64,000 bases of DNA from Acutalibacteraceae bacterium (lineage in GTDB: Bacteria > Bacillota > Clostridia > Oscillospirales > Acutalibacteraceae). Shown piece after piece: positions 14,677 through 64,000 of the stretch (positions are counted from its first letter, which is position 1; each line of letters starts with the position of its first letter). Position numbers and translations under genes: made by a program. The stretch is from positions 4,541 through 68,540 of the forward strand of contig JAZOQV010000055.1 in assembly GCA_045656265.1 (NCBI GenBank), written 5' to 3'. Under the pieces are notes generated by a model that did no database searches, was not told the DNA's origin, and saw only the letters and a list, made by a program, of their open reading frames with translations.

Positions 14677-14750
14677 TGGCAGCGGAATAGGGATTCGAAC
14701 CCCAACAAACAGAGTCAGAGTCTGTCGTGCTACCGTTACACAATTCCGCT
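14677..14750 (-). tRNA. tRNA-Gln (anticodon CUG)
   Basis: 74 nt cloverleaf by hand: acceptor AGCGGAA/TTCCGCT, anticodon stem ACAGA/TCTGT with loop CTCTGAC, T-arm TGGGG-TTCGAAT-CCCTA, encoded CCA. Confidence 0.85.
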
Positions 14751-16209: not shown

Positions 16210-16557
16210 TGGTGGAGATGGCGGGAATTGTACCCGCGTCCAAAAGTATTTCCGAAAGGCTTCTCCGAGTGCAGACAGTCTATTAAGATTCCCCTCACTG
16301 CACGCCGACAGTCAGGCTTGCAGTTACGGTAGTTTCTAGTTCATGGCGTTGGTCGAAACATTCCTACGCGCACGTTCACCGCTAATCGACGCCCTTAAAA
16401 GACCGCGGTACTTCCGTTAAGGACGGCTGCTTAATTAAGCAGCAAGAGCAACTTTATTGTTGTCGTTTATTTTTTAAAAATTGCGGCTTTTTAAGCGGTA
16501 CCGCACCGCTACTCGCTTCCCTTGCTTCAACGCTCTTGTCGAAACCTTTGCATCCCC
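16210..16557 (-). ncRNA. ssrA: tmRNA (SsrA)
   Basis: Minus-sense 5' GGGGATGCAAAGGTTTCGAC and 3' GGACGCGGGTACAATTCCCGCCATCTCCACCA. The internal tag reading frame ends ...NDNNKVALAA-TAA. It lies next to smpB. Confidence 0.9.
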
Positions 16558-27394: not shown

Positions 27395-27471
27395 GAAGGC
27401 GTAGCTCAGTTGGTTAGAGTACCTGCTTGACATGCAGGGGGTCGGTGGTTCAAGTCCACTCGTCTTCACCA
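27395..27471 (+). tRNA. tRNA-Val (anticodon GAC)
   Basis: 77 nt. Acceptor GAAGGCG/CGTCTTC, anticodon stem CCTGC/GCAGG with loop TTGACAT, T-loop TTCAAGT, encoded CCA. Confidence 0.85.
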
Positions 27472-37082: not shown

Positions 37083-37158
<76 letters not shown>

Positions 37159-42540: not shown

Positions 42541-42548
42541 AAAAATAA

Positions 42549-42630
42549 CCCTTGTAACTGACGGAAGAAATGGTCTACCATTGTGGAGCAAGGGTGGGTG
42601 TAAAAACCTTTTTGCCGACCGTCTGGGCGC
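42549..42630 (+). promoter_or_regulatory. ZTP (pfl motif) riboswitch
   Basis: P1 CCCTTG...CAAGGG, ACTGACGGAA core, ATGGT/ACCAT hairpin, and distal GCCGACCGTCTGGGCG pseudoknot strand. This closely matches remembered ZTP riboswitch sequences and sits upstream of glyA-fhs. Confidence 0.85.
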
Positions 42631-42666
42631 ATTTATCTAATTTGTAGATAAGTGCGCCTTTTTTGT
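42624..42666 (+). terminator. riboswitch expression-platform terminator
   Basis: GGCGCA(T)TTATCTA / TAGATAAGTGCGCC stem followed by TTTTTT. Its 5' arm overlaps the pseudoknot strand. Confidence 0.8.
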
Positions 42667-54546: not shown

Positions 54547-55089
54547 GTGAGTGATTGTGTGAACAATGTTGTGTTGTTTGGCATAACAGGTGGATATGTT
54601 GCAGACGAAATTAAAAGAATTTTAAGTTATTATGGTATTGTCGCAGTATGTGGAACAAGTGTCGATGTTACAAGCGGAAAACCAAATTTTTTAGTATTGG
54701 AGTTTTCAACAAGAATAAATTTAAAAGGCGGCAAAGGCGTAGTTGTTTTAATAGGGCAGATAAGCGAAAACAGTATTTTAGAAATCCCCGATAATTATAT
54801 AGGTATAGTATATTCAAGCGATGGTGCCGCGTTAAATCTGCTACAAAAAAATAATATAACCACAATCACATGCGGTATGTCTAGCCGAGATACATTGATT
54901 CTTTCAAGTATTGGCGAGCGCACTGCTTCGGTTTGTGTTCAACGAAAAATAATTACCTTGAGCGGAAGGATAATAGAGCCAAGCGAATATCCGTTGCATT
55001 TGAAAAATAAAATAACCGATTACGCTCTTCTTGCAGCATTTGGTATACTTCTTTTGTGCGATATAGAGCCGCTTGATATTGAATATTAA
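54547..55089 (+). CDS. hypothetical protein
   Basis: 180 aa with a GTG start. No motif recognised. Confidence 0.4.
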   Translation: MSDCVNNVVLFGITGGYVADEIKRILSYYGIVAVCGTSVDVTSGKPNFLVLEFSTRINLKGGKGVVVLIGQISENSILEIPDNYIGIVYSSDGAALNLLQKNNITTITCGMSSRDTLILSSIGERTASVCVQRKIITLSGRIIEPSEYPLHLKNKITDYALLAAFGILLLCDIEPLDIEY

Positions 55090-55197: not shown

Positions 55198-55290
55198 ATG
55201 GCTAAAAACGTAGTTCCAGCAGCTCGCGAAGCTCTTAACCGTTTTAAGATGGAGGCTGCAAACGAGGTTGGTGTACCCAACCCATCTTAA
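55198..55290 (+). pseudogene. 5' fragment of an alpha/beta-type small acid-soluble spore protein (SASP) gene, interrupted
   Basis: AAAGGAG RBS. MAKNVVPAAREALNRFKMEAANEVGVP matches the conserved N-terminal half of alpha/beta SASPs. The frame then ends as NPS-stop, without the conserved C-terminal (S/T)RxNGxVGGE(I/M)xKR half. Confidence 0.75.
55266..55282. promoter_or_regulatory. candidate recombination junction (attL-like dyad)
   Basis: Perfect inverted repeat GGTTGG-TGTAC-CCAACC at the point where SASP similarity is lost, 33 bp from the recombinase stop. Confidence 0.4.
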
Positions 55291-55314
55291 AACGGTTTAA
55301 GTTACATATTGTTT

Positions 55315-56952
55315 TTATGGTTTGTCCATTTCGCCAATAAACTTATAGAAAATTCGTACTGATTGCTGGAAGGGCGAATTCCTGTGGGTTGCTTTTACCT
55401 TGCCATCAGGTAATATTTTCGGTCCTACTTCAATTCTGTCAATAAAGGTAAGTACAGTGTCGCGGTCAAGAACTTCGATATGACTATATTTCTTAGTTAA
55501 ATCAAAGAACATTTTATAGTTATCAACTTTGCTTTCTTTTGCAGCATCGTCGTTAAACTGTAAAAGTTCTTTTTTTATTTGTGAAGCTTCTTTTTGCAAG
55601 GTATCTACCATTGAATATAACCTATCATCTTCAAGGCGTCCTTCGGCGTTGTCTACATAAAGTTTATGAATTATAGTGTCAATTGTATTTAGTCTGCTTT
55701 GAAGTTTCTCTCGTTGTAGTTTTTTTGCGGCTGCTACATTGTTAGATTTTTCATCTTGCATTATGTGTTCTACAATAGAAGAGATTTCTTTATCATTGAG
55801 TGAAATCAATGAGTTTAAATCGTTGCGAACAAGTTCTAAGAGGTCAGCATAGCGTATTCTTGTACCAATGCAGGGCTCATTTATATCCTTGCGTTTATTT
55901 ATGCAAGAAAGATACCAGTATTTTTCGCGCTCTCCTTTGTAAACCGTTCCGCACGAACAAAGTGCATGACCGCAAAGAGCACAGTATGCAATACCTGAAA
56001 AGATGCTTTTGCGTACATGGTCATATTGTTGAAAATCCCTTGTACCTTTGCCCATGTTGTGTTGTGCTTTTTTAAAGATTTCTTCACTAACTAAAGGTTC
56101 ATGGGTGTTTTTTGTAATTGACCAATCTTCTTTTGCCATTGATAATTTTTTTGTAGACTTAATACTTGCTTTTCTGCTTTTACCAAGAACTGTATGCCCA
56201 AGGTAGACCTCGTTTTTGAGAATTCTTTTAACAGTTGTATAATTCCAAAGGTCAGAGACTCTTGCCGCCCCTTTTTCGCTGAATTTATCACGATACAACG
56301 CACGGTATTTTAGGGGCGGAAGCACACCGTCTGTGTTAAGGTCTTGCGCTATTTTTCGCGAGGAATCTCCGTTAGCGGCAGCATTGAAAATTCGTTTCAC
56401 AATAGGTGTTGTATTATCATCTGGAACGAGTTGATTTTTATTGTTTTCAGCTTTCTTGTATCCATAAGGTGGACAGGCACAATATAGTCCATCCTGACGT
56501 TTGGCTTTGAGTACCTCTTTTACTTTGCGTGAAACTTCACGAAGATAGGTTTCATTCATAGCAAGGTTGAAGGCGAACATCATGTTTTCTGATTCGCTAT
56601 CAAAGTTATCACCAATAGCGATGTATCTAATCCCGTTTTCCGGAAAATACTTTTCAGCGTAAAAACCCGATTCAATCATATCGCGTCCTAATCGAGATAA
56701 ATCTTTAGTGATTACAACTTTGACGGCATTTTTCTTTAGCTCACTTATCATTTCTTGAAATCCCGGTCTATTGAAATTACCGCCAGAATAACCGTCATCT
56801 ACAAATTCTCTAACGAGGTTTAAGCCGTTGTCTTCACAGAATTTAGTGATAATCATACGCTGGTTGGTGATACTTGATGATTCACCTGCTTGAGATTCTT
56901 CGCGAGAAAGTCTTAAATATGCAAAGGCCAATTTATTTTGTTCGATTCTCAT
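55315..56952 (-). CDS. large serine recombinase
   Basis: 545 aa. Resolvase catalytic domain (AYLRLSREES, DDGYSGGNFNRPGF, VITKDLSRLGRD), recombinase domain, Cys-rich zinc ribbon (CALCGH...CINKRKDINEPC), coiled-coil C-terminus. Confidence 0.9.
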   Translation of the reverse strand: MRIEQNKLAFAYLRLSREESQAGESSSITNQRMIITKFCEDNGLNLVREFVDDGYSGGNFNRPGFQEMISELKKNAVKVVITKDLSRLGRDMIESGFYAEKYFPENGIRYIAIGDNFDSESENMMFAFNLAMNETYLREVSRKVKEVLKAKRQDGLYCACPPYGYKKAENNKNQLVPDDNTTPIVKRIFNAAANGDSSRKIAQDLNTDGVLPPLKYRALYRDKFSEKGAARVSDLWNYTTVKRILKNEVYLGHTVLGKSRKASIKSTKKLSMAKEDWSITKNTHEPLVSEEIFKKAQHNMGKGTRDFQQYDHVRKSIFSGIAYCALCGHALCSCGTVYKGEREKYWYLSCINKRKDINEPCIGTRIRYADLLELVRNDLNSLISLNDKEISSIVEHIMQDEKSNNVAAAKKLQREKLQSRLNTIDTIIHKLYVDNAEGRLEDDRLYSMVDTLQKEASQIKKELLQFNDDAAKESKVDNYKMFFDLTKKYSHIEVLDRDTVLTFIDRIEVGPKILPDGKVKATHRNSPFQQSVRIFYKFIGEMDKP

Positions 56953-57140
56953 AATACCTCCTTCGACTGAATCGAACCACTATTTAAATTATACATCATA
57001 TCACTGTCACTTACAAGTGATAGTGGAATGTGTTTTGTGTTTCTCACTCGTTGCTCAATAAGCATCGAAGTTGTTTTATTTTCGTTGAAAACTCTACTGA
57101 TAACATATCTTGTATCATTAATATCTATATGGTTTCTCAT
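56949..57140 (-). CDS. small protein, possibly TnpW-like accessory protein
   Basis: 63 aa with GGAGG RBS. Its stop overlaps the recombinase start (ATGA). The TRYVISRVFNENKTTSMLIEQRV pattern resembles small proteins found next to clostridial serine recombinases (from memory, weak). Confidence 0.3.
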   Translation of the reverse strand: MRNHIDINDTRYVISRVFNENKTTSMLIEQRVRNTKHIPLSLVSDSDMMYNLNSGSIQSKEVL

Positions 57141-57398
57141 TCGATTTCCTCCTTTCAGTATTTTTTACCATTTGTTCAAATATTAAACATTTAAAAATTA
57201 AAAATAGAATTAACTAATTCGATACCAAAATTACATCTGCAATATTTTTTATGAATTCGGTACAAACTATTAACTCATAACTAGTTAGTATTAGAAGTAT
57301 ATTTATTAAAAATTTTTTGTAAAGCGCAATTATGAAGTTTTAAGCTATAAAAAGGCTTGAAACCCACATAAATACTGAGAAAAAATTTTAAAAATATT

Positions 57399-58109
57399 TT
57401 ATTTTTCTTTGTTATTGGATGAAAATAAGTTCTCGTAGTTATTGCAGCTTAATATAGAATAACGTGCATTTTTAGTTACGCTCAGAATGTTGTTTTTCTC
57501 TGCTTTGGCTATAATGTCGTAAATAACACTTTTAGATTTATTATATTTTTCTGATAATTTTCCATAGCTGGTTAGATAACCTGTATCGTTAAAATAACAT
57601 ATAGCTGAATTGTTTAAACTGTTTGGTAGGGAAGGGTCTTTATATACAAGTTTCAAAAAAAGGCTTGTAATTATATCGCAGCTATAATATTTAGCATTAA
57701 GAGATTCTAATGTTTTAATATCGCATTTTGGCACAAAAACGAAACCGAAGGATGTTTTGATGCCCTTTATTATGTTTGGGTGTCTGAAATTTTTGTTTGC
57801 TTCGGTAACTTCAAACCCTGTAATATATATCGTTGAATTTTCGATTGAAATTAATTTTAATTTGGTTAAAAGTTTTAAAGTTTCTTCAAAATCTTTTGAA
57901 TTTAATTTAAGAATATTTTGTAAATCTGTAAAGCTATCAATATGTACATATGGTTTATTTGCGCTTTTGGAAAAGGTTGATAAGGATAGTATCATTATGT
58001 ACGAAAATAAACACTTCCCAAAACCATTATTAAAGTTACAAGAAATAGTGCGAAGAATTCGTCTGGGGATTTTAATGTAATCAAATAAAATTTTTTGTTG
58101 GATATTCAC
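57399..58109 (-). CDS. hypothetical protein, possible RepA_N-like replication initiator / winged-helix protein
   Basis: 236 aa with GGAGG RBS. The N-terminal pattern (FDYIKIPRRIL...FSYIMILSLS...YVHIDSFTDLQNILKLNSKDFEETLKLLTKLKLISIE) loosely follows RepA_N architecture. Iteron-like repeats lie upstream. Confidence 0.3.
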   Translation of the reverse strand: MNIQQKILFDYIKIPRRILRTISCNFNNGFGKCLFSYIMILSLSTFSKSANKPYVHIDSFTDLQNILKLNSKDFEETLKLLTKLKLISIENSTIYITGFEVTEANKNFRHPNIIKGIKTSFGFVFVPKCDIKTLESLNAKYYSCDIITSLFLKLVYKDPSLPNSLNNSAICYFNDTGYLTSYGKLSEKYNKSKSVIYDIIAKAEKNNILSVTKNARYSILSCNNYENLFSSNNKEK

Positions 58110-58308
58110 TTGGTATTTAACCTCCTTTCTTATTATTAAGTATTAACAAGTCAATAAGCATATTTCTTTGCAGCCGAGATAAAAAATAAAAGATAAAGCA
58201 ACCGCGCTTTTCAAAAAGCCTTTATTTATGCTGAAAACTGCGTTCTGAAAGAATAATTATTAGAACTATTACAGGGCCAAACAGGTATACGATATGTTCG
58301 TTCTTTTT

Positions 58309-58430
58309 TCATCGTTCTGTCCTACCTGTTAGGTAGTATATTCAGTTTTTTAAATTTGTAAAATATCGTTCTAATCATCGTTCTGTCGACTGCATTTAGT
58401 AGTATATTTACTTTTTTTATTTTGTAAAAT
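58309..58430. repeat. two about 56-bp imperfect direct repeats (iteron-like)
   Basis: TCATCGTTCTGTC..TTAG(G)TAGTATAT..TTTGTAAAAT at 58309-58364 and 58375-58430. A third degenerate TTAGTAGGAT core sits near 58463. Confidence 0.6.
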
Positions 58431-58566
58431 TTATTGTTGAAATATTATTTTTGCGCAGTCTTTTAGTAGGATGTTTAACTTTTAAACTATATTATTAAGT
58501 ATAAGAATTCGACGTTACTTGTAAAAAATTGTTAATGCTTAAAGTGCTTTGAGCTTTGGGGTAAAG

Positions 58567-58605
58567 TAAAAAAGACTATGGCATTTTGTTGCCATAGTCT
58601 TTTTG
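58567..58605. terminator. bidirectional intrinsic terminator
   Basis: AGACTATGGCA / TGCCATAGTCT 11-bp stem flanked by A- and T-runs, downstream of the XRE gene. Confidence 0.8.
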
Positions 58606-58735
58606 TATAACGGAAACCATTTGAAAAGTCGCGTGGTTCAAAATAGGTTAATCGATGAAAATATCCTCCGCTTGTGATAGATTTGTAAAAAACTTACAGT
58701 CAAAACACAAACGTAGGATATTAGTATGGGGAAGT

Positions 58736-59014
58736 TTATTTATGTCCTATTACTTCGTCTGGAAACACAGATGCCTTTATTAAATCTTCAGGTGCAATTT
58801 CCAAAGCATCTGCAATATTATAAAACACATCTAATGAAAATCCGTATGCCATGTTGGGTGCCTCAATATTGCTTAACAATGACCGGCTTATGTTTGCCTT
58901 TTCTGCTAAGCGTTCTTGTGATAAACCGCGGATTCTTCGGAGTGTAGAAATAACGACGCCGAGTTGAATAAAACGGTCTCTATTTTTATAATCTACTTCC
59001 TTTCCCATAATCAT
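58736..59014 (-). CDS. XRE family HTH transcriptional regulator (element repressor-like)
   Basis: 92 aa. HTH LSQERLAEKANISRSLLSNIE. Divergent from the cargo promoter. Confidence 0.75.
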   Translation of the reverse strand: MIMGKEVDYKNRDRFIQLGVVISTLRRIRGLSQERLAEKANISRSLLSNIEAPNMAYGFSLDVFYNIADALEIAPEDLIKASVFPDEVIGHK

Positions 59015-59285: not shown

Positions 59286-59401
59286 ATATGAACAATATTA
59301 GTTCACCCTGCGTCTGGAAACTCAATTGCGGTTGAGAAAACGTCAACAATCGCAAAGTTTTTATAAAAACATTTAAATTTAATTTGTGCCTGAGCCTTAG
59401 A

Positions 59402-59450
59402 GCCTGTGCCATTTAATCGCTTTTTGCGATTATGGCGCAGGCTTTTTTTT
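59402..59450 (+). terminator. strong intrinsic terminator inside a 5' leader
   Basis: GCCTGTGCCAT...ATGGCGCAGGC outer stem with an inner AATCGC/GCGATT stem, followed by T8. Confidence 0.8.
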
Positions 59451-59490
59451 AACCTCTGTACAAATAGCATAGAATTTGAGGTGATATCAT

Positions 59491-59685
59491 TTGCAAAACA
59501 CAGTGCAACTCGAAACAGTTGATGCGGAGATTGAAAAAACGCGACGACGATTTCTCTGTCCTTTATGCAATAAGCATACAGTGCTTTGGCTGCTTCCCAG
59601 TACTGAAATCAAGGATTTACCGATTAAATGTAAAAGGTGTGGAAGAGAAAGCGTTGTAAACGTCACACCCGATACTAAACCCTAA
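59491..59685 (+). CDS. cysteine-rich KTR-like zinc-ribbon protein
   Basis: 64 aa with GAGGTGA RBS and a TTG start. The CPLCNKHT...LPIKCKRCGRESVVNV pattern resembles the cysteine-rich KTR domain family of Firmicutes mobile elements. Confidence 0.5.
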   Translation: MQNTVQLETVDAEIEKTRRRFLCPLCNKHTVLWLLPSTEIKDLPIKCKRCGRESVVNVTPDTKP

Positions 59686-59767
59686 CAATTTTGCACTAAA
59701 AAAGGAAGCTAATGTAATTTCGCAGATAACCCCTACCCCTCGCAATAGACAATGTACTTATCCCTGC

Positions 59768-59798
59768 GCAAACACTATGCTCTGTGTTTGCTTAATTT
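59768..59798 (+). terminator. possible weak terminator/hairpin
   Basis: GCAAACAC / GTGTTTGC stem followed by TTAATTTT. Confidence 0.35.
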
Positions 59799-59845
59799 TG
59801 CCCCCTGCTGTAGTAAACACTTACAAAACAAGGAGAATATAAAAA

Positions 59846-60442
59846 ATGAAACAGGATGAATTACGCCAAGCTCTGATTGATGGCGCTATCCATGTCATTG
59901 CTCAGAACGGATTTGACAAGGCAACAACAAAAGCGATAAGCACCGCAACAGGTATTAACGAGGTATATATATACCGGCTCTTTGGTAGCAAAGAAAAGGT
60001 ATTTGATGCCGCTTTCGAGTATCTTGATAGACAACTTGTAAGTAAAGCCATGCTTCATATCGACGTTATGTATATATCCGAGATGGATTACGAAACAAGA
60101 TGCAGAATATATTTTTTAGCGATATGGCGTTTTCTTATAGGTAACAGAGATGAAATTCTTATGTACGTCCGTTATTATTATTCGCAATATTTTAAAAAAC
60201 ATTCTGCCGCCGCGCATAAAATTAGATATCGACCGTTAGTAGATAAGTTCGGCGATGCGTTCCGTGATGAAGCGAATATATGGCTGATTCTCATTTATAT
60301 ATTAAATGTAATGCTTGACTTTGCAATAAAGGTACATAACGACGAGATGCCCAATGAGGATGATTATACCGAGCATGTGTTTCGTGTAATCTTTCAATCT
60401 ATTAAGCAATATTTTAGAGTAAATGAGGAGAGAGGTTCATAA
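59846..60442 (+). CDS. TetR/AcrR family transcriptional regulator
   Basis: N-terminal HTH GFDKATTKAISTATGINEVYIYRLFGSKE, 198 aa. Confidence 0.8.
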   Translation: MKQDELRQALIDGAIHVIAQNGFDKATTKAISTATGINEVYIYRLFGSKEKVFDAAFEYLDRQLVSKAMLHIDVMYISEMDYETRCRIYFLAIWRFLIGNRDEILMYVRYYYSQYFKKHSAAAHKIRYRPLVDKFGDAFRDEANIWLILIYILNVMLDFAIKVHNDEMPNEDDYTEHVFRVIFQSIKQYFRVNEERGS

Positions 60443-60443
60443 T

Positions 60444-61169
60444 ATGAAAAAAGCTCTGAGTATAATCAAAACAACATTTGTGTGGTTGATGGTGTTACTT
60501 GCGGTAACGATGATGATTTTTACCGTTATTTCTTGCACAACCTTTAACCGTAATGACCGTAGCTTATTCGGATTTAAAATGTATATCGTCAATTCTGACT
60601 CGATGGCAGCAACCGATTTTGAAGCAGGCGATTTAATTCTTGCAAAAGAGGTAGACCCCTCTACTCTCAAAGAAGGCGATATTATTACCTTTATGTCGCA
60701 GGATACCGATAGCTTCGGCGAAACTATTACCCATAAAATCCGCAAAGTAACAACAGATGCCGAAGGTAATCCGGGATTCATTACATATGGTACAACCACT
60801 AATACTGATGACGAAGCAATTGTTACCTATCCTTATGTTTTAGGTAAGTACGAAAGCCATGTTCAAAGCTTAGGTACTTTCTTCAACTTTTTAAAAACTA
60901 CACCCGGCTATTTCGTGTGCATATTCACACCTTTTATGTTGATTATCCTTTATGAAGGTTTGAGATTTTTTAACCTGTTCCGCAGATATAAGAGGGAACA
61001 GATTGAAGAGCTGCAGGCAGAAAAAGAAAAAATCGAGGTTGAGAAAGCAGAAAATGCTAAAATGCTCGAAGAGCTCAAAGCTCTGAAAGCGCAACTCGAA
61101 TGCAATCAGACTGCGTCTGCAGTGGCTAAAAATACGTCAGAAAAATCGGACGCAAACATTGACCCATAG
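60444..61169 (+). CDS. sipW: SipW-type (ER/archaeal-type) signal peptidase I with a C-terminal TM + coiled-coil extension
   Basis: N-terminal TM, catalytic Ser in VNSDSM, GDIITF, His in ITHKI, YGTTTNTDDE block. GGAGAGAGG RBS before ATG 60444. Confidence 0.7.
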   Translation: MKKALSIIKTTFVWLMVLLAVTMMIFTVISCTTFNRNDRSLFGFKMYIVNSDSMAATDFEAGDLILAKEVDPSTLKEGDIITFMSQDTDSFGETITHKIRKVTTDAEGNPGFITYGTTTNTDDEAIVTYPYVLGKYESHVQSLGTFFNFLKTTPGYFVCIFTPFMLIILYEGLRFFNLFRRYKREQIEELQAEKEKIEVEKAENAKMLEELKALKAQLECNQTASAVAKNTSEKSDANIDP

Positions 61170-61204
61170 TTATTTCCCAGCAAAAGAAAGTAGTTGATTC
61201 TAAA

Positions 61205-61372
61205 ATGTTAAATTTTATTTTAGGTGTGTTAGTAGGCGGTTTAGTTGGCTTTGTCGTGTGTGCCATTTGTGCTGCCACCGAAAACAATGAGAGCGCAGAA
61301 GCCCAGTGGCTAAATGAATCAGAAAAAGATAATAACTCTGCACAGTTAGATAAAGAAAATCTCACAAAATAA
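61205..61372 (+). CDS. small membrane peptide (DUF3789-like?), not in the ORF track
   Basis: 55 codons. MLNFILGVLVGGLVGFVVCAICAA then an acidic tail. A truncated paralogous copy lies at 61550-61615. Weak RBS. Confidence 0.35.
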   Translation: MLNFILGVLVGGLVGFVVCAICAATENNESAEAQWLNESEKDNNSAQLDKENLTK

Positions 61373-61549
61373 TAAATAGTATTTTACCTTATTTCGTGCT
61401 ACCCCATTCCAATCGCTATTAAGAATGGGACAGCAATCAAAGGGCGTAAATAATGACAAATGTATAAGGATTTGCACCTTTTGATTGCTGTAAATTATTT
61501 ATATATAACTACGGCAAAAGCACATTCCCATAAAAGCAAAACCATTCCA

Positions 61550-61615
61550 TTGTTACATTTTGTTTTAAGCATTATTGTAGGTGGCATAGTTGATTTTGTC
61601 TGTGCAATATTATAG
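61550..61615 (+). pseudogene. truncated paralog of the 61205 small peptide
   Basis: TTG-LHFVLSIIVGGIVDFVCAIL-stop. Nucleotide-level similarity includes the upstream CCCATA...AAAAG segment. Confidence 0.3.
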
Positions 61616-61674
61616 TGCAGCAGGACCTGATAAGTAAGCAGAACCCCGTTGTAGTAAAGAATCAGGAGAGAAAA

Positions 61675-61902
61675 ATGCCCGTAAACAAAACAGATATCAT
61701 GGTTTGGTGCCTCTTTGGAGTCATTGCAACTATTTTCCTTATTTTAGCACTAATTAGATTAGTTGATTTCTCCAAAGAATTTTCAGCAACGCTTTACTAT
61801 TTGAATATGGAAATTAAACGCGCTAACGGTATGGACCGTAGTCACTGGATTCGTCAAAGACGAAGATTATGGTTGTCTCTAATACCGTTTATAAAGTACT
61901 AA
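61675..61902 (+). CDS. small membrane protein, hypothetical
   Basis: 75 aa from ATG 61675 (AGGAGAG RBS). One TM segment and a basic C-terminus. Confidence 0.45.
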   Translation: MPVNKTDIMVWCLFGVIATIFLILALIRLVDFSKEFSATLYYLNMEIKRANGMDRSHWIRQRRRLWLSLIPFIKY

Positions 61903-62034
61903 TTTACTTACAATCAGAGATTTTCTCTGTGAAGTAAGCGAGGTAATAAAAAACGTGTCTTGTCTTCGAACTTTTAATACCTCGTGCCGCCCATCAACCT
62001 CTCTGATGGGCGGCAAGCCACTGCCTACAACTCG

Positions 62035-62048
62035 CCAACAATTGTTGG
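62035..62048. promoter_or_regulatory. 14-bp perfect palindrome, candidate TetR operator
   Basis: CCAACAATTGTTGG lies about 55 bp upstream of the TasA-like gene start. Confidence 0.35.
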
Positions 62049-62103
62049 AACGTGGTTAATATATATTAAGATGTTGGCAAGAAAAAAGGAGGTCATTAGG
62101 AAA

Positions 62104-64000
62104 ATGACAAATCAAAAATCCACAAAGCGCGCTCTTTTAGGCAGTGCACTCGCTTTATTCGTTTGCGTTTCAATGCTTATTGGTAGCACTTTAGCTTGGT
62201 TCACAGACTCCGTTACCTCTAATGGTAATAAAATTCAGTCTGGCACATTAAAAGTTGACCTTGAAATGTTGGGTGAAAACGGCATTTGGAAGTCAATTAA
62301 GGAGGACAAAAGCGCACTTTTTAATTATGACAAATGGGAACCCGGTTACACCGAATTTAAAATTTTAAAAATTGAAAATGAAGGTAGTTTGGCACTCAAG
62401 TGGATGGCAAAATTTGTTTCGGACAAAGAGATTTCTATTATTGCTGATGTAATTGACGTTTATGTTTACCCAAGTGAAACAGAGTTTACATATCCTACTG
62501 ACCGTAATCTTGATGGTTACACCAAGGTTGGTACTGTTCGTGATTTCGTAAATACCATTGAAAGCACCACCAACGGAAATCTTAAAGCTGGCGAGGTTGC
62601 TTATCTTGGCATCGCTCTTAAAATGCAAGAGAGTGCAGGAAATGACTATCAAAACAAAATTCTCGGTGCGTTTGATATCCAGATAGTTGCTACTCAACTT
62701 AACTCTGAATTAGATAGTTTTGACAAAAATTATGATATTGACGCTTCTCTCAATTTTGCTCCCATTTCCAATGCAAATGAATTAAAGGTTGCTTTAGCAA
62801 ATAAGGAAGAAAATATTGTTCTCACCGATAATATCGTGGTAGATGATTCTTTTGATGTTGATTACGATGCACACGTTGACGGTGCGGGTTATACAATTCG
62901 TCGTACCGATGGTACTGCTCTTATGTCTGTCGATGTAGATACTCCGGATATTTATACAGGCGCGTTTTTTACTGTAAAAACAGGTGCTACGCTTACCCTT
63001 GAAAACATCATCGTTGATGGTGGCGCAATGTGGACCGGTGAAATTAACCAAGTTCTCCAACGCGGTACCACTAATTCAGGTGTAACCGCAACAGGAGCTC
63101 TTGTTGTAGCTGAAAGTAATGCACATATCGTTCTTGGAGAAGGCGCAGTTCTTCAGAACAACGACGGTGCAAATGCAGTTAACCTTGGTACACGTGTAGG
63201 TAGCACCCTAACCATTAACGGCGGTGAAATCATCAATAACTCTTCTGCAGCAGGTGCTATCTGGGGCGGCGGTGAAATCACCCTTAATTCTGGTAAAATT
63301 AGCAATAACTATGGTGGAATTGGTGGCGCTATTCGCGTTGTAACCAACATTGGTACCGTTCTAACAATGAACGGTGGCGAAATCAACCACAACTATTCAG
63401 CAGGAGTTGGCGGTGCTATTTGGGCAGGTTCCTCACGCAGCAACAATGTCTATGTGCTTAACGGCGGAGAAATGGCTTATAACTACTCCCAGCAAGCAGG
63501 TGGCGCTATTTATGCTGGTTATTATGAAACCGTTAAGATTGGCGGAACCTTTAAGATGCATGACAACGCTGCGCCCTCTTACGGAGCTATCCGTTTTCAC
63601 GACCATGCAAGCTTTGTAATGACAGGCGGCGAGATTTACGATAACGGAATAAACTCTTTATTCTTAAATAATAACTCCGCATCCATTACCGGCGGCAAGA
63701 TTACCGACAGCTTTGGATACAATGGTGGCTTGGGTCTTACTTGGGGTGAAGCCGAGGTTGATGGCGTTATCGCCTACAACCTCAGCACGAACCACAATAC
63801 CGCATATCTCGCAAAGAATTTTGGCACATTAAAGTTTACTGTAAATGAAGCCGATGCCGACTTTGCTAACTTCAACTTCAAACCTGCATCCGATTACATA
63901 TACACAGAGGGTGATGAAGCAAAATTGGTGTGTATGAACGAGGGGTACGAAACCTATTGGGATACAACTACCAAAACCTTCCGCTTAAAAGCAAATAAGG
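62104..64000 (+). CDS. TasA/camelysin-like N-terminal domain fused to a beta-helix repeat region (partial; runs off the window)
   Basis: Not in the ORF track because it is open-ended. I translated frame 1 from ATG 62104 (AAGGAGG RBS) with no stop up to 64000. SipW-type signal KRALLGSALALFVCVSMLIGSTLAWFTD, a TasA-like core, then repeated GGEI.N....GGAI coils. Confidence 0.75.
   Translation, partial: MTNQKSTKRALLGSALALFVCVSMLIGSTLAWFTDSVTSNGNKIQSGTLKVDLEMLGENGIWKSIKEDKSALFNYDKWEPGYTEFKILKIENEGSLALKWMAKFVSDKEISIIADVIDVYVYPSETEFTYPTDRNLDGYTKVGTVRDFVNTIESTTNGNLKAGEVAYLGIALKMQESAGNDYQNKILGAFDIQIVATQLNSELDSFDKNYDIDASLNFAPISNANELKVALANKEENIVLTDNIVVDDSFDVDYDAHVDGAGYTIRRTDGTALMSVDVDTPDIYTGAFFTVKTGATLTLENIIVDGGAMWTGEINQVLQRGTTNSGVTATGALVVAESNAHIVLGEGAVLQNNDGANAVNLGTRVGSTLTINGGEIINNSSAAGAIWGGGEITLNSGKISNNYGGIGGAIRVVTNIGTVLTMNGGEINHNYSAGVGGAIWAGSSRSNNVYVLNGGEMAYNYSQQAGGAIYAGYYETVKIGGTFKMHDNAAPSYGAIRFHDHASFVMTGGEIYDNGINSLFLNNNSASITGGKITDSFGYNGGLGLTWGEAEVDGVIAYNLSTNHNTAYLAKNFGTLKFTVNEADADFANFNFKPASDYIYTEGDEAKLVCMNEGYETYWDTTTKTFRLKANK

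Follow-up and report, generated by a model that had tools for sequence, protein, structure and literature searches.

We analysed 64,000 nucleotides of DNA from an Acutalibacteraceae bacterium (contig JAZOQV010000055.1 of assembly GCA_045656265.1), referred to below as the window, in which an ssp gene for an alpha/beta-type small acid-soluble spore protein (SASP) is split by an element that carries a large serine recombinase gene. ssp is a forespore gene. The open reading frame (ORF) found here encodes 30 aa (MAKNVVPAAREALNRFKMEAANEVGVPNPS-stop), with an AGGAG ribosome-binding site 10 nt 5' of its ATG. It matches the Pfam family SASP (PF00269, E=2.8e-9) over only profile positions 2-27 of 59, and it retains the conserved N-terminal helix region including E-x-A-x-E-x-G-V, the most conserved stretch of alpha/beta SASPs, which we take to be the protease-cleavage motif. 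The C-terminal DNA-binding half (...GS[IV]GG[EQ]M[VT]K[KR]...) is missing from the ORF, and a six-frame motif scan and tblastn, covering both strands and the scenario of an inversion, found none anywhere in the 64 kb. An earlier reading of the letters without database searches (the sequence-only reading) had reported a ribosome-binding site followed by the N-terminal half of a SASP and no 3' half to the right of it; the profile match and the scans agree with both statements and extend the second to the whole window.

A protein search with a chimeric query built on the SASP fragment returned P0044, an intact alpha/beta SASP of 61 aa. The first 26 aa of the truncated ORF are identical to P0044, which beyond residue 26 continues NLKQGYNGDLTSKQAGSIGGQMVKKMIESYENSMK into the C-terminal half. 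The protein is encoded on contigs including L007 and L013, where the gene is uninterrupted and stands in the order DUF378, 176-aa gene, ssp, asd, aspartokinase, hom, the same synteny as in the window. The DNA of these contigs is 98.2-98.6% identical to the window as far as the junction and unrelated past it. Because the order DUF378, 176-aa gene, ssp is found in these uninterrupted contigs as well, the left flank of the junction is host DNA. The other half of the gene was seen in two conspecific contigs, L184 and L187 (Asd 98-100% identical to that of L007), in which an intact ssp 3' half with its DNA-binding region adjoins asd and is preceded by foreign DNA, joined at the identical dinucleotide, GA. 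The suggestion that the ssp gene had been split by an element lying to its right is thus borne out by the intact allele in the same synteny, by the end of identity at the junction and by the 3' halves of the conspecific contigs. The exact 30-aa stump is recorded on 25 public contigs, mostly from ruminant gut.

The recombinase gene faces the junction with its 3' end, and its stop lies 33 nt from a six-nt dyad, GGTTGG-TGTAC-CCAACC; gene and dyad are both present where the sequence-only reading had placed them. The protein is full length compared with homologues of 548 and 556 aa, has three large-serine-recombinase Pfam domains above threshold, and in addition matches DUF4368 (PF14287, E=3.1e-13) at residues 472-542. 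Its closest annotated relative is a tndX product, ~31% identical over 97% of the length. The identical recombinase is encoded on 5 public contigs. The start codon of its gene overlaps the stop of a 63-aa ORF, which is kept beside the recombinase in the related loci L016, L020 and L142 with a shared pattern, Y-x3-R-x-F...L-x3-R. The 63-aa ORF, which together with the recombinase makes up the recombination module, matches no Pfam or NCBIfam family, and Pfam likewise gave nothing for its homologues in L016 and L142. No sporulation-type promoter was found upstream of this operon, where we saw just a sigma-70-like (vegetative-type) match and a short conserved block. The element is visible over at least 8.7 kb, to the end of the window.

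Attachment sites and crossover point

Comparison of attL, attR, attB and attP sequences places the inferred crossover at the first two bases of codon E23 of ssp (GAG). The native part of the truncated ORF is accordingly codons 1-22 plus the GA of codon 23, and bases 55266-55290, which supply the last base of codon 23 and then VGVPNPS-stop, are the P' arm of the element. This arm mimics the gene over ten bases (GTTGGTGTA), and it is on account of this copied stretch that the window and the intact allele visibly diverge only from 55276 onward. The base directly after the GA, 55266, is G in the window, whereas the intact alleles and the attR sites of L184 and L187 have A there.

In the B half-site of attL, a distal motif, AACCGTTTTAAGATGG at 55237-55252, is followed by 11 nt to the GA; in the P' half-site, 16 nt from the GA lead to the distal motif CCATCTTAAAACGGTT at 55282-55297. 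The two motifs form a 16-nt perfect inverted repeat, one of just two of such length in the window, which as RNA would fold into a hairpin of -30 kcal/mol (z=-2.9). The uninterrupted gene of L007 gives attB as ...GGAGGCTGCAAAC-GA-AGTTGGTGTAAACCTCAAG, and the window gives attL as ...GGAGGCTGCAAAC-GA-GGTTGGTGTACCCAACCCATCTTAAAACGG. The attR sites read ...GAGTACATCAACA-GA-AGTTGGTGTAAACC in L187 and ...CAGGTACATCAAGG-GA-AGTTGG in L184, so that GA is all that the attL of the window has in common with the two conspecific attR sites. The same GA is the symmetry centre of two further structures: a P-GA-P' joint in L141, and the attL/attR pair of L142, a complete relative of 3,415 bp with both junctions and both ssp halves present. 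Defining attB from relatives with an uninterrupted ssp, as the sequence-only reading had proposed, was therefore possible with L007 and L013. Its search for the 3' half and the right att site succeeded in part: the conspecific L184 and L187 provide both, and the right end of the window's own element was not reached.

Among the relatives, the distal motif stands 12 nt from AAGATG in attB as against 17 nt in the P arms; the P arms of L184 and L187 match the TTTAAGATGG-like motif only partially. In large serine integrases the motif bound by the zinc ribbon domain (ZD) is shifted between attB and attP (PMC3783163), and the 5-nt longer P-type arm in attL agrees with the ZD-motif shift of that model.

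The break had been said to coincide with the six-nt dyad. This is approximately right as to place, in that the crossover GA sits two bases left of the dyad; the GA is nevertheless outside it, and the whole dyad belongs to the P' arm of the element, in the proximal part of that arm. As a crossover or binding site in its own right the dyad was rejected: it is one of 44 perfect 6+5+6 dyads in the window, and L016, L020, L096 and L142 do not share it.

Related elements at ssp

A metagenome scan yielded the 80 closest relatives of the recombinase (61-76% identity), and 75 of them abut an ssp half-gene. For 74 it is the 3' half, 89-210 nt after the recombinase stop; the remaining one, L096, faces the 5' half, like the window. 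The other five loci comprise one with attP, two in look-alike sites outside ssp, one cut off at the core and one that is unclear. In the two look-alike loci (L123 and L125), the element is joined at GA, ~+150 after the recombinase stop, to non-ssp DNA (GAGGTGGGCACGTACGG, GAGGAGGGTGTCGATC) that resembles the B' arm only over its first ~10-15 bases; they are probably secondary (pseudo-attB) sites. A scan of viral contigs with the recombinase returned no relative.

Two sub-lineages, 61-64% identical to each other, share attB and the GA core and have attP inverted relative to the recombinase gene. In the first (the window, L016, L020, L096) the recombinase faces the ssp 5' half; in the second (74 loci, L098-L174, att at ~+90 to +210 after the stop) it lies upstream of the 3' half. 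In this second, co-directional lineage we also saw an extra P'-like half-site, placed after the recombinase stop and before the true P arm, either as GTCGGCGTACC...CATCTTA or just as CCATCTTAAA (L142:5766-5800; L136, L148, L150; L123, L155). This half-site may have been left behind by the attP inversion, or it may serve as an accessory site for binding. The joint of L141 (L141:6240-6340) follows directly after the recombinase as P arm-GA-P' arm, of the attP type, and continues into sequence like the left end of the element; it represents either an excised circle or a tandem insertion, and the contig shows no terminal overlap of the kind that a closed circle would give.

Several comparisons indicate that these elements move between hosts. 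L001 and L002 share 99.6-99.7% identity with the window over the recombination module, against 78-85% over the adjoining chromosome, and L189 carries the same element in a different synteny, Spo0A-DUF3892. Recombinases 75% identical to the window's occupy the same ssp codon in L016 and L020, from other Acutalibacteraceae metagenome-assembled genomes (MAGs). Identical flanks carry recombinases only 65% identical and, conversely, recombinases 99.8% identical sit beside ssp halves that are 88% identical, so the divergence of the recombinase does not follow that of the host flank. Stable vertical transmission is contradicted both by the module and flank identities in L001 and L002 and by the relatives, which do not co-diverge with their hosts. 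Cargo also differs among related elements, with cohesin/dockerin, WYL and S-layer proteins in different members, and is of a sort usual for islands.

Three smaller observations concern the edges of these loci. Upstream of the 63-aa ORF, most element contigs break off within a few hundred bases, which fits a shared module joined to variable interiors. At one such contig end, just upstream of the recombination module, L016 has a 387-aa transposase-like ORF that by eye is IS3-like (L016:14163-15326). Assembly GCA_045594795.1 has the element at ssp on L189, but its asd gene is on L185, where the very next gene encodes a 1,794-aa leucine-rich repeat (LRR) protein and no ssp 3' half is detectable, reflecting either a different gene order or a lost attR side.

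ssp is also the target of a second large serine recombinase family (566-581 aa, lacking DUF4368, 23% identical to the window's recombinase), which integrates near the 3' end of the gene. Its members are fused in frame to the last ~11 ssp codons (...KKMIESYENSMK): the 566-aa recombinase of L015, a homologue in L106 that is 56% identical to it and carries the same fusion, and a fusion of the same kind in L179. The L015 element appears prophage-like, and going by ORF translations alone it has genes for ThyX-like and DNA-ligase-like proteins; the L106 element carries an S-layer protein. Among the 63 ssp 3' halves surveyed, 15 are cut again at this second site.

Interpretation of the insertion

With a probability of roughly 70%, we read the window as attL plus at least 8.7 kb of an integrated mobile island, an ordinary integrative element with a new and highly specific target. 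The DUF4368-type (TndX/TnpX-like) recombinase would join the attP of the element with a ~60-bp site in the ssp coding sequence, cutting at the GA of codon E23 within the most conserved alpha/beta SASP stretch. Such attP x attB recombination is predicted from the recurrence of the same junction in several host backgrounds and from the L141 joint. Insertion would leave the 30-aa stump and carry the ssp 3' half off to the island's other end; with only a stump left and the 3' half moved away, this ssp copy should be non-functional while the island is resident. The first alternative of the sequence-only reading, plain inactivation of one ssp copy, fits what was found here: horizontal spread (78-85% identical flanks, a third synteny), no co-divergence and a recombinase of the TndX/TnpX type. 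As a target, ssp would have the merits of high conservation and of silence during growth, and it is presumably redundant or can be dispensed with; it may therefore offer a safe landing site usable across species. Excision would be precise and restore ssp and, by analogy with TnpX and TndX, would proceed without a directionality factor; we therefore expect occasional events that are independent of cell type. The split, its junction, the build of the att sites, the target specificity of the whole family and the horizontal spread are established by the comparisons above; an active recombinase, factor-independent excision and an absence of developmental control are what we infer.

The closest known systems are the clostridial conjugative and mobilizable transposons with TndX (Tn5397) and TnpX (Tn4451/Tn4453), whose recombinases have the same set of Resolvase, Recombinase, zinc ribbon and DUF4368 domains. 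Crossover at GA, a recombinase gene at the end of the element and insertion inside a coding sequence are likewise shared. TndX target sites have a central GA, and in C. difficile the strongly preferred target of TndX is a gene with a Fic domain (PMC4430133). The Tn4451 recombinase carries out integration and excision without a directionality factor (PMC5704250), and going by the title of Wang and Mullany 2000, as listed in PMC4430133, TndX alone is enough for both Tn5397 reactions. The window's recombinase is nevertheless distant from TndX in sequence, and its element differs from these transposons in carrying a SipW secretion cargo, not a resistance gene, and in showing no transfer genes in the visible part. 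A further resemblance is to the site-specific serine-recombinase integrative mobilizable elements of Firmicutes (for example those at rumA of streptococci), which also combine one recombinase, a conserved dispensable gene as target, very short end repeats and variable cargo; they disrupt dispensable genes (PMC5704250). The target gene is a different one here, and no mobilization functions were identified in the visible part of the window's element. Durrant et al. found DUF4368 in only 0.73% of site-specific enzymes and describe it as the mark of a clade in which most members are multi-targeting. The family described here is unlike most of that clade in being strongly site-specific, with 75 of 80 members in ssp and two in look-alike sites.

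Five points weigh against the reading as an ordinary island. The right end of the window's own element was not found, and every public contig carrying the element ends within it. Contigs with this element were recovered by look-ups using the 30-aa stump and the XRE-type regulator of the element; exact look-ups with its TetR and 633-aa proteins returned no record, and a genome scan based on asd, together with look-ups, gave attR only in conspecific genomes, with right-end DNA not linkable to the window's element. Pfam and NCBIfam searches of the visible 8.7 kb showed no relaxase, transfer or type IV secretion genes and no structural or lysis genes of a phage. None of the split halves examined (63 three-prime halves from relatives and the window's 5' half) shows decay, which fits recent insertion and would fit equally well if selection maintained a gene that is reassembled from time to time. 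The dispensability of ssp in the host is an assumption. Finally, the conserved 63-aa ORF is a candidate partner of the recombinase.

The best surviving alternative is a stochastic, reversible switch, in which factor-independent excision and re-integration would generate a mix of ssp-on and ssp-off cells selected as bet-hedging in spore resistance. Enzymes of the TnpX/TndX type can by themselves catalyse both directions (PMC5704250), and a P-GA-P' joint does occur in a metagenome contig of a relative (L141). Filled and empty sites were found within the same rumen runs, in reads and contigs at the junction, and the empty-site contig L007 and the element-interior contig L207 (identical XRE protein) both come from sample ERZ28613420. 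The co-occurrence of filled and empty sites is, however, explained equally well by strain mixtures, the L141 joint may be a tandem insertion and not a circle, and neither a high excision rate nor a benefit of heterogeneity has support. We consider such a switch unlikely.

The element may also be compared with the intervening elements of sporulation genes. In skin (sigK), SPbeta (spsM), phi3T (kamA), vfbin, vrin and gin (gerE), a large-serine-recombinase element likewise splits a small sporulation gene, and as in those cases precise excision would rebuild the gene. Such an element need not be a phage: gin, of 28.6 kb, is not (PMC5595907). The intervening elements reported so far lie almost all in mother-cell genes (PMC4191935, PMC5595907, PMC6957869), since excision there is not inherited (PMC6957869). 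Whereas the host genes of the skin and SPbeta type are expressed in the mother cell, the target in the window is an alpha/beta SASP gene, by textbook a forespore gene. Elements of that type are inherited vertically and have a directionality factor under sporulation control; the window's element spreads horizontally, and sporulation control is not evident. Reversible excision outside sporulation is exemplified by the A118-like prophage of Listeria in comK ('active lysogeny'), a large-serine-recombinase element within a gene that excision can switch on. That element is a prophage with excision induced in a defined host situation, and nothing of the sort is evident for the element in the window.

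A developmentally programmed intervening element, the second alternative of the sequence-only reading, parallel to skin/sigK, SPbeta/spsM and gin/gerE but acting in the germline compartment, would be excised during sporulation, in the forespore or at germination, perhaps with the help of the 63-aa protein, rebuilding ssp; re-integration would possibly follow. The gene that is hit is indeed specific to sporulation, its frame would be restored exactly, and the whole family is faithful to this one gene. The lack of decay in the 63 three-prime halves of relatives and in the 5' half here, and the translational coupling of a small conserved ORF to the recombinase, would also suit such a role. Yet an element excised in the forespore would be lost from the spore genome. 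Divergence of the element does not follow that of the host, and modules that are nearly identical occur in divergent genomes. Occupancy of ssp by two unrelated elements at once is common (15 of 63), and related recombinases work without a directionality factor (PMC5704250). The promoter match upstream of the recombinase operon is of the vegetative type alone, and the ssp promoter would read into the recombinase gene antisense, after the stable attL hairpin. Programmed forespore excision is unsupported by these data, and we judge it quite improbable; we give the same low rank to its fuller version, in which excision is tied to the formation or germination of spores and supplies SASP on demand, the circle being retained or re-integrated, and to a weaker one, in which the two recombinase families converged on ssp because an element resident there modulates the protection of spore DNA in the gut.

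That the 30-aa ORF is a native stand-alone gene or that the recombinase belongs to an element extending leftward (outcomes for which the sequence-only reading had allowed), or that the ORF is an old pseudogene with no connection to the recombinase, is refuted: annotation of the ORF by gene callers is the sole point in its favour, and against it stand the intact 61-aa allele at the same locus in near-identical DNA, identity that breaks exactly at the att core, a left flank of syntenic host DNA, and a PNPS-stop (PRPS-stop in the 75%-identical L016 and L020) encoded by the conserved arm of the element.

For the island reading, the mechanism is of a known kind, that of a TndX/TnpX-like serine-recombinase island. 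What appears to be new is the targeting of a forespore-type sporulation gene, the strict site-specificity within the DUF4368 clade, the presence of two orientation classes at the same GA, and the fact that a second recombinase family has converged on ssp. Within the full texts searched we found no paper with ssp as an integration target. In many gut Oscillospirales a forespore-type ssp gene is targeted repeatedly, at two sites and by two unrelated recombinase families, and this offers a natural test of the 'mother-cell only' rule. If the host has few ssp copies, carriage may alter the resistance of its spores to UV and heat. Excision coupled to the forespore, if true, would be the first gene-intervening system in the germline compartment. 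A site-specific DUF4368 clade with readable attB and attP and two orientations should be useful for understanding and engineering target choice. For annotation, the 30-aa 'SASP' genes and the SASP-like C-termini of recombinases in Clostridia MAGs are artefacts of element junctions.

Contents of the element and other features

Table 1. Coordinates of the ssp junction, of the element and of comparison loci (window positions unless a contig is named)
Feature	Position	Strand	Remarks
Chromosomal gene before ssp	54547-55089	+	176 aa as called in related contigs; host flank, order kept in L007/L013
Truncated ssp ORF, 30 aa	55198-55290	+	Pfam SASP match
attL	55237-55297		B half-site + GA core + P' half-site
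Inferred crossover dinucleotide GA	55264-55265		attL/attR/attB/attP comparison
Dyad GGTTGG-TGTAC-CCAACC	55266-55282		within P' arm
Large serine recombinase, TndX/TnpX-like, 545 aa	55315-56952	-	Pfam Resolvase, Recombinase, Zn_ribbon_recom, DUF4368
63-aa ORF, candidate accessory/regulatory partner	56949-57140	-	stop overlaps recombinase start codon (ATGA)
Element backbone	57399-59014	-	236-aa protein, AT-rich spacer with repeated promoter-like units, XRE-type regulator
236-aa backbone protein	57399-58109	-	weak Pfam HTH_36 match only
XRE-type helix-turn-helix regulator	58736-59014	-	Pfam HTH_19/HTH_3
Cargo operon	59491-64000	+	Pfam and NCBIfam matches; continues past window end
Cys-rich KTR	59491-59685	+	cargo operon
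TetR	59846-60442	+	cargo operon
SipW-type signal peptidase	60444-61169	+	cargo operon
Two small membrane proteins	61205-61372, 61675-61902	+	cargo operon
633-aa protein with SipW-dependent signal peptide	62104 to just past window end	+	cargo operon
Second-family recombinase fusion	L015:12391-14091	-	
Second-family recombinase fusion	L106:19496-21241	+	
Second-family recombinase fusion	L179:11154-12407	-	

Behind the recombinase and the 63-aa ORF, the element has a backbone block that is found after the recombinase in L188, L189, L192 and L195-L197 as well. A promoter-like unit, TTTACA-16 nt-TATACT, occurs in four copies on the minus strand: one upstream of the 63-aa/recombinase operon (57296-57323) and three in the AT-rich spacer between the 236-aa and XRE genes (58335-58362, 58401-58428, 58498-58525). 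Two of the three spacer copies overlap a 32-nt direct repeat (58333-58364 / 58399-58430).

The last gene of the cargo operon seen in the window runs just past its end; the full-length 633-aa protein, P0121, is on a 77,936-bp contig. Homologous cargo operons, with 73-76% DNA identity, occur in other mobile contexts (L175-L178), where they adjoin tyrosine recombinases and, in L178, sortase, Rep and FtsK-like genes. The KTR-TetR-SipW operon with its SipW-dependent secreted proteins (window 59388-64000) is thus a travelling module itself.

The window also contains ordinary chromosomal RNA genes: a tmRNA at 16210-16557 (-), a ZMP/ZTP riboswitch at 42544-42635 (+), and three tRNA genes at 14680-14750 (-), 27395-27468 (+) and 37086-37158 (-).

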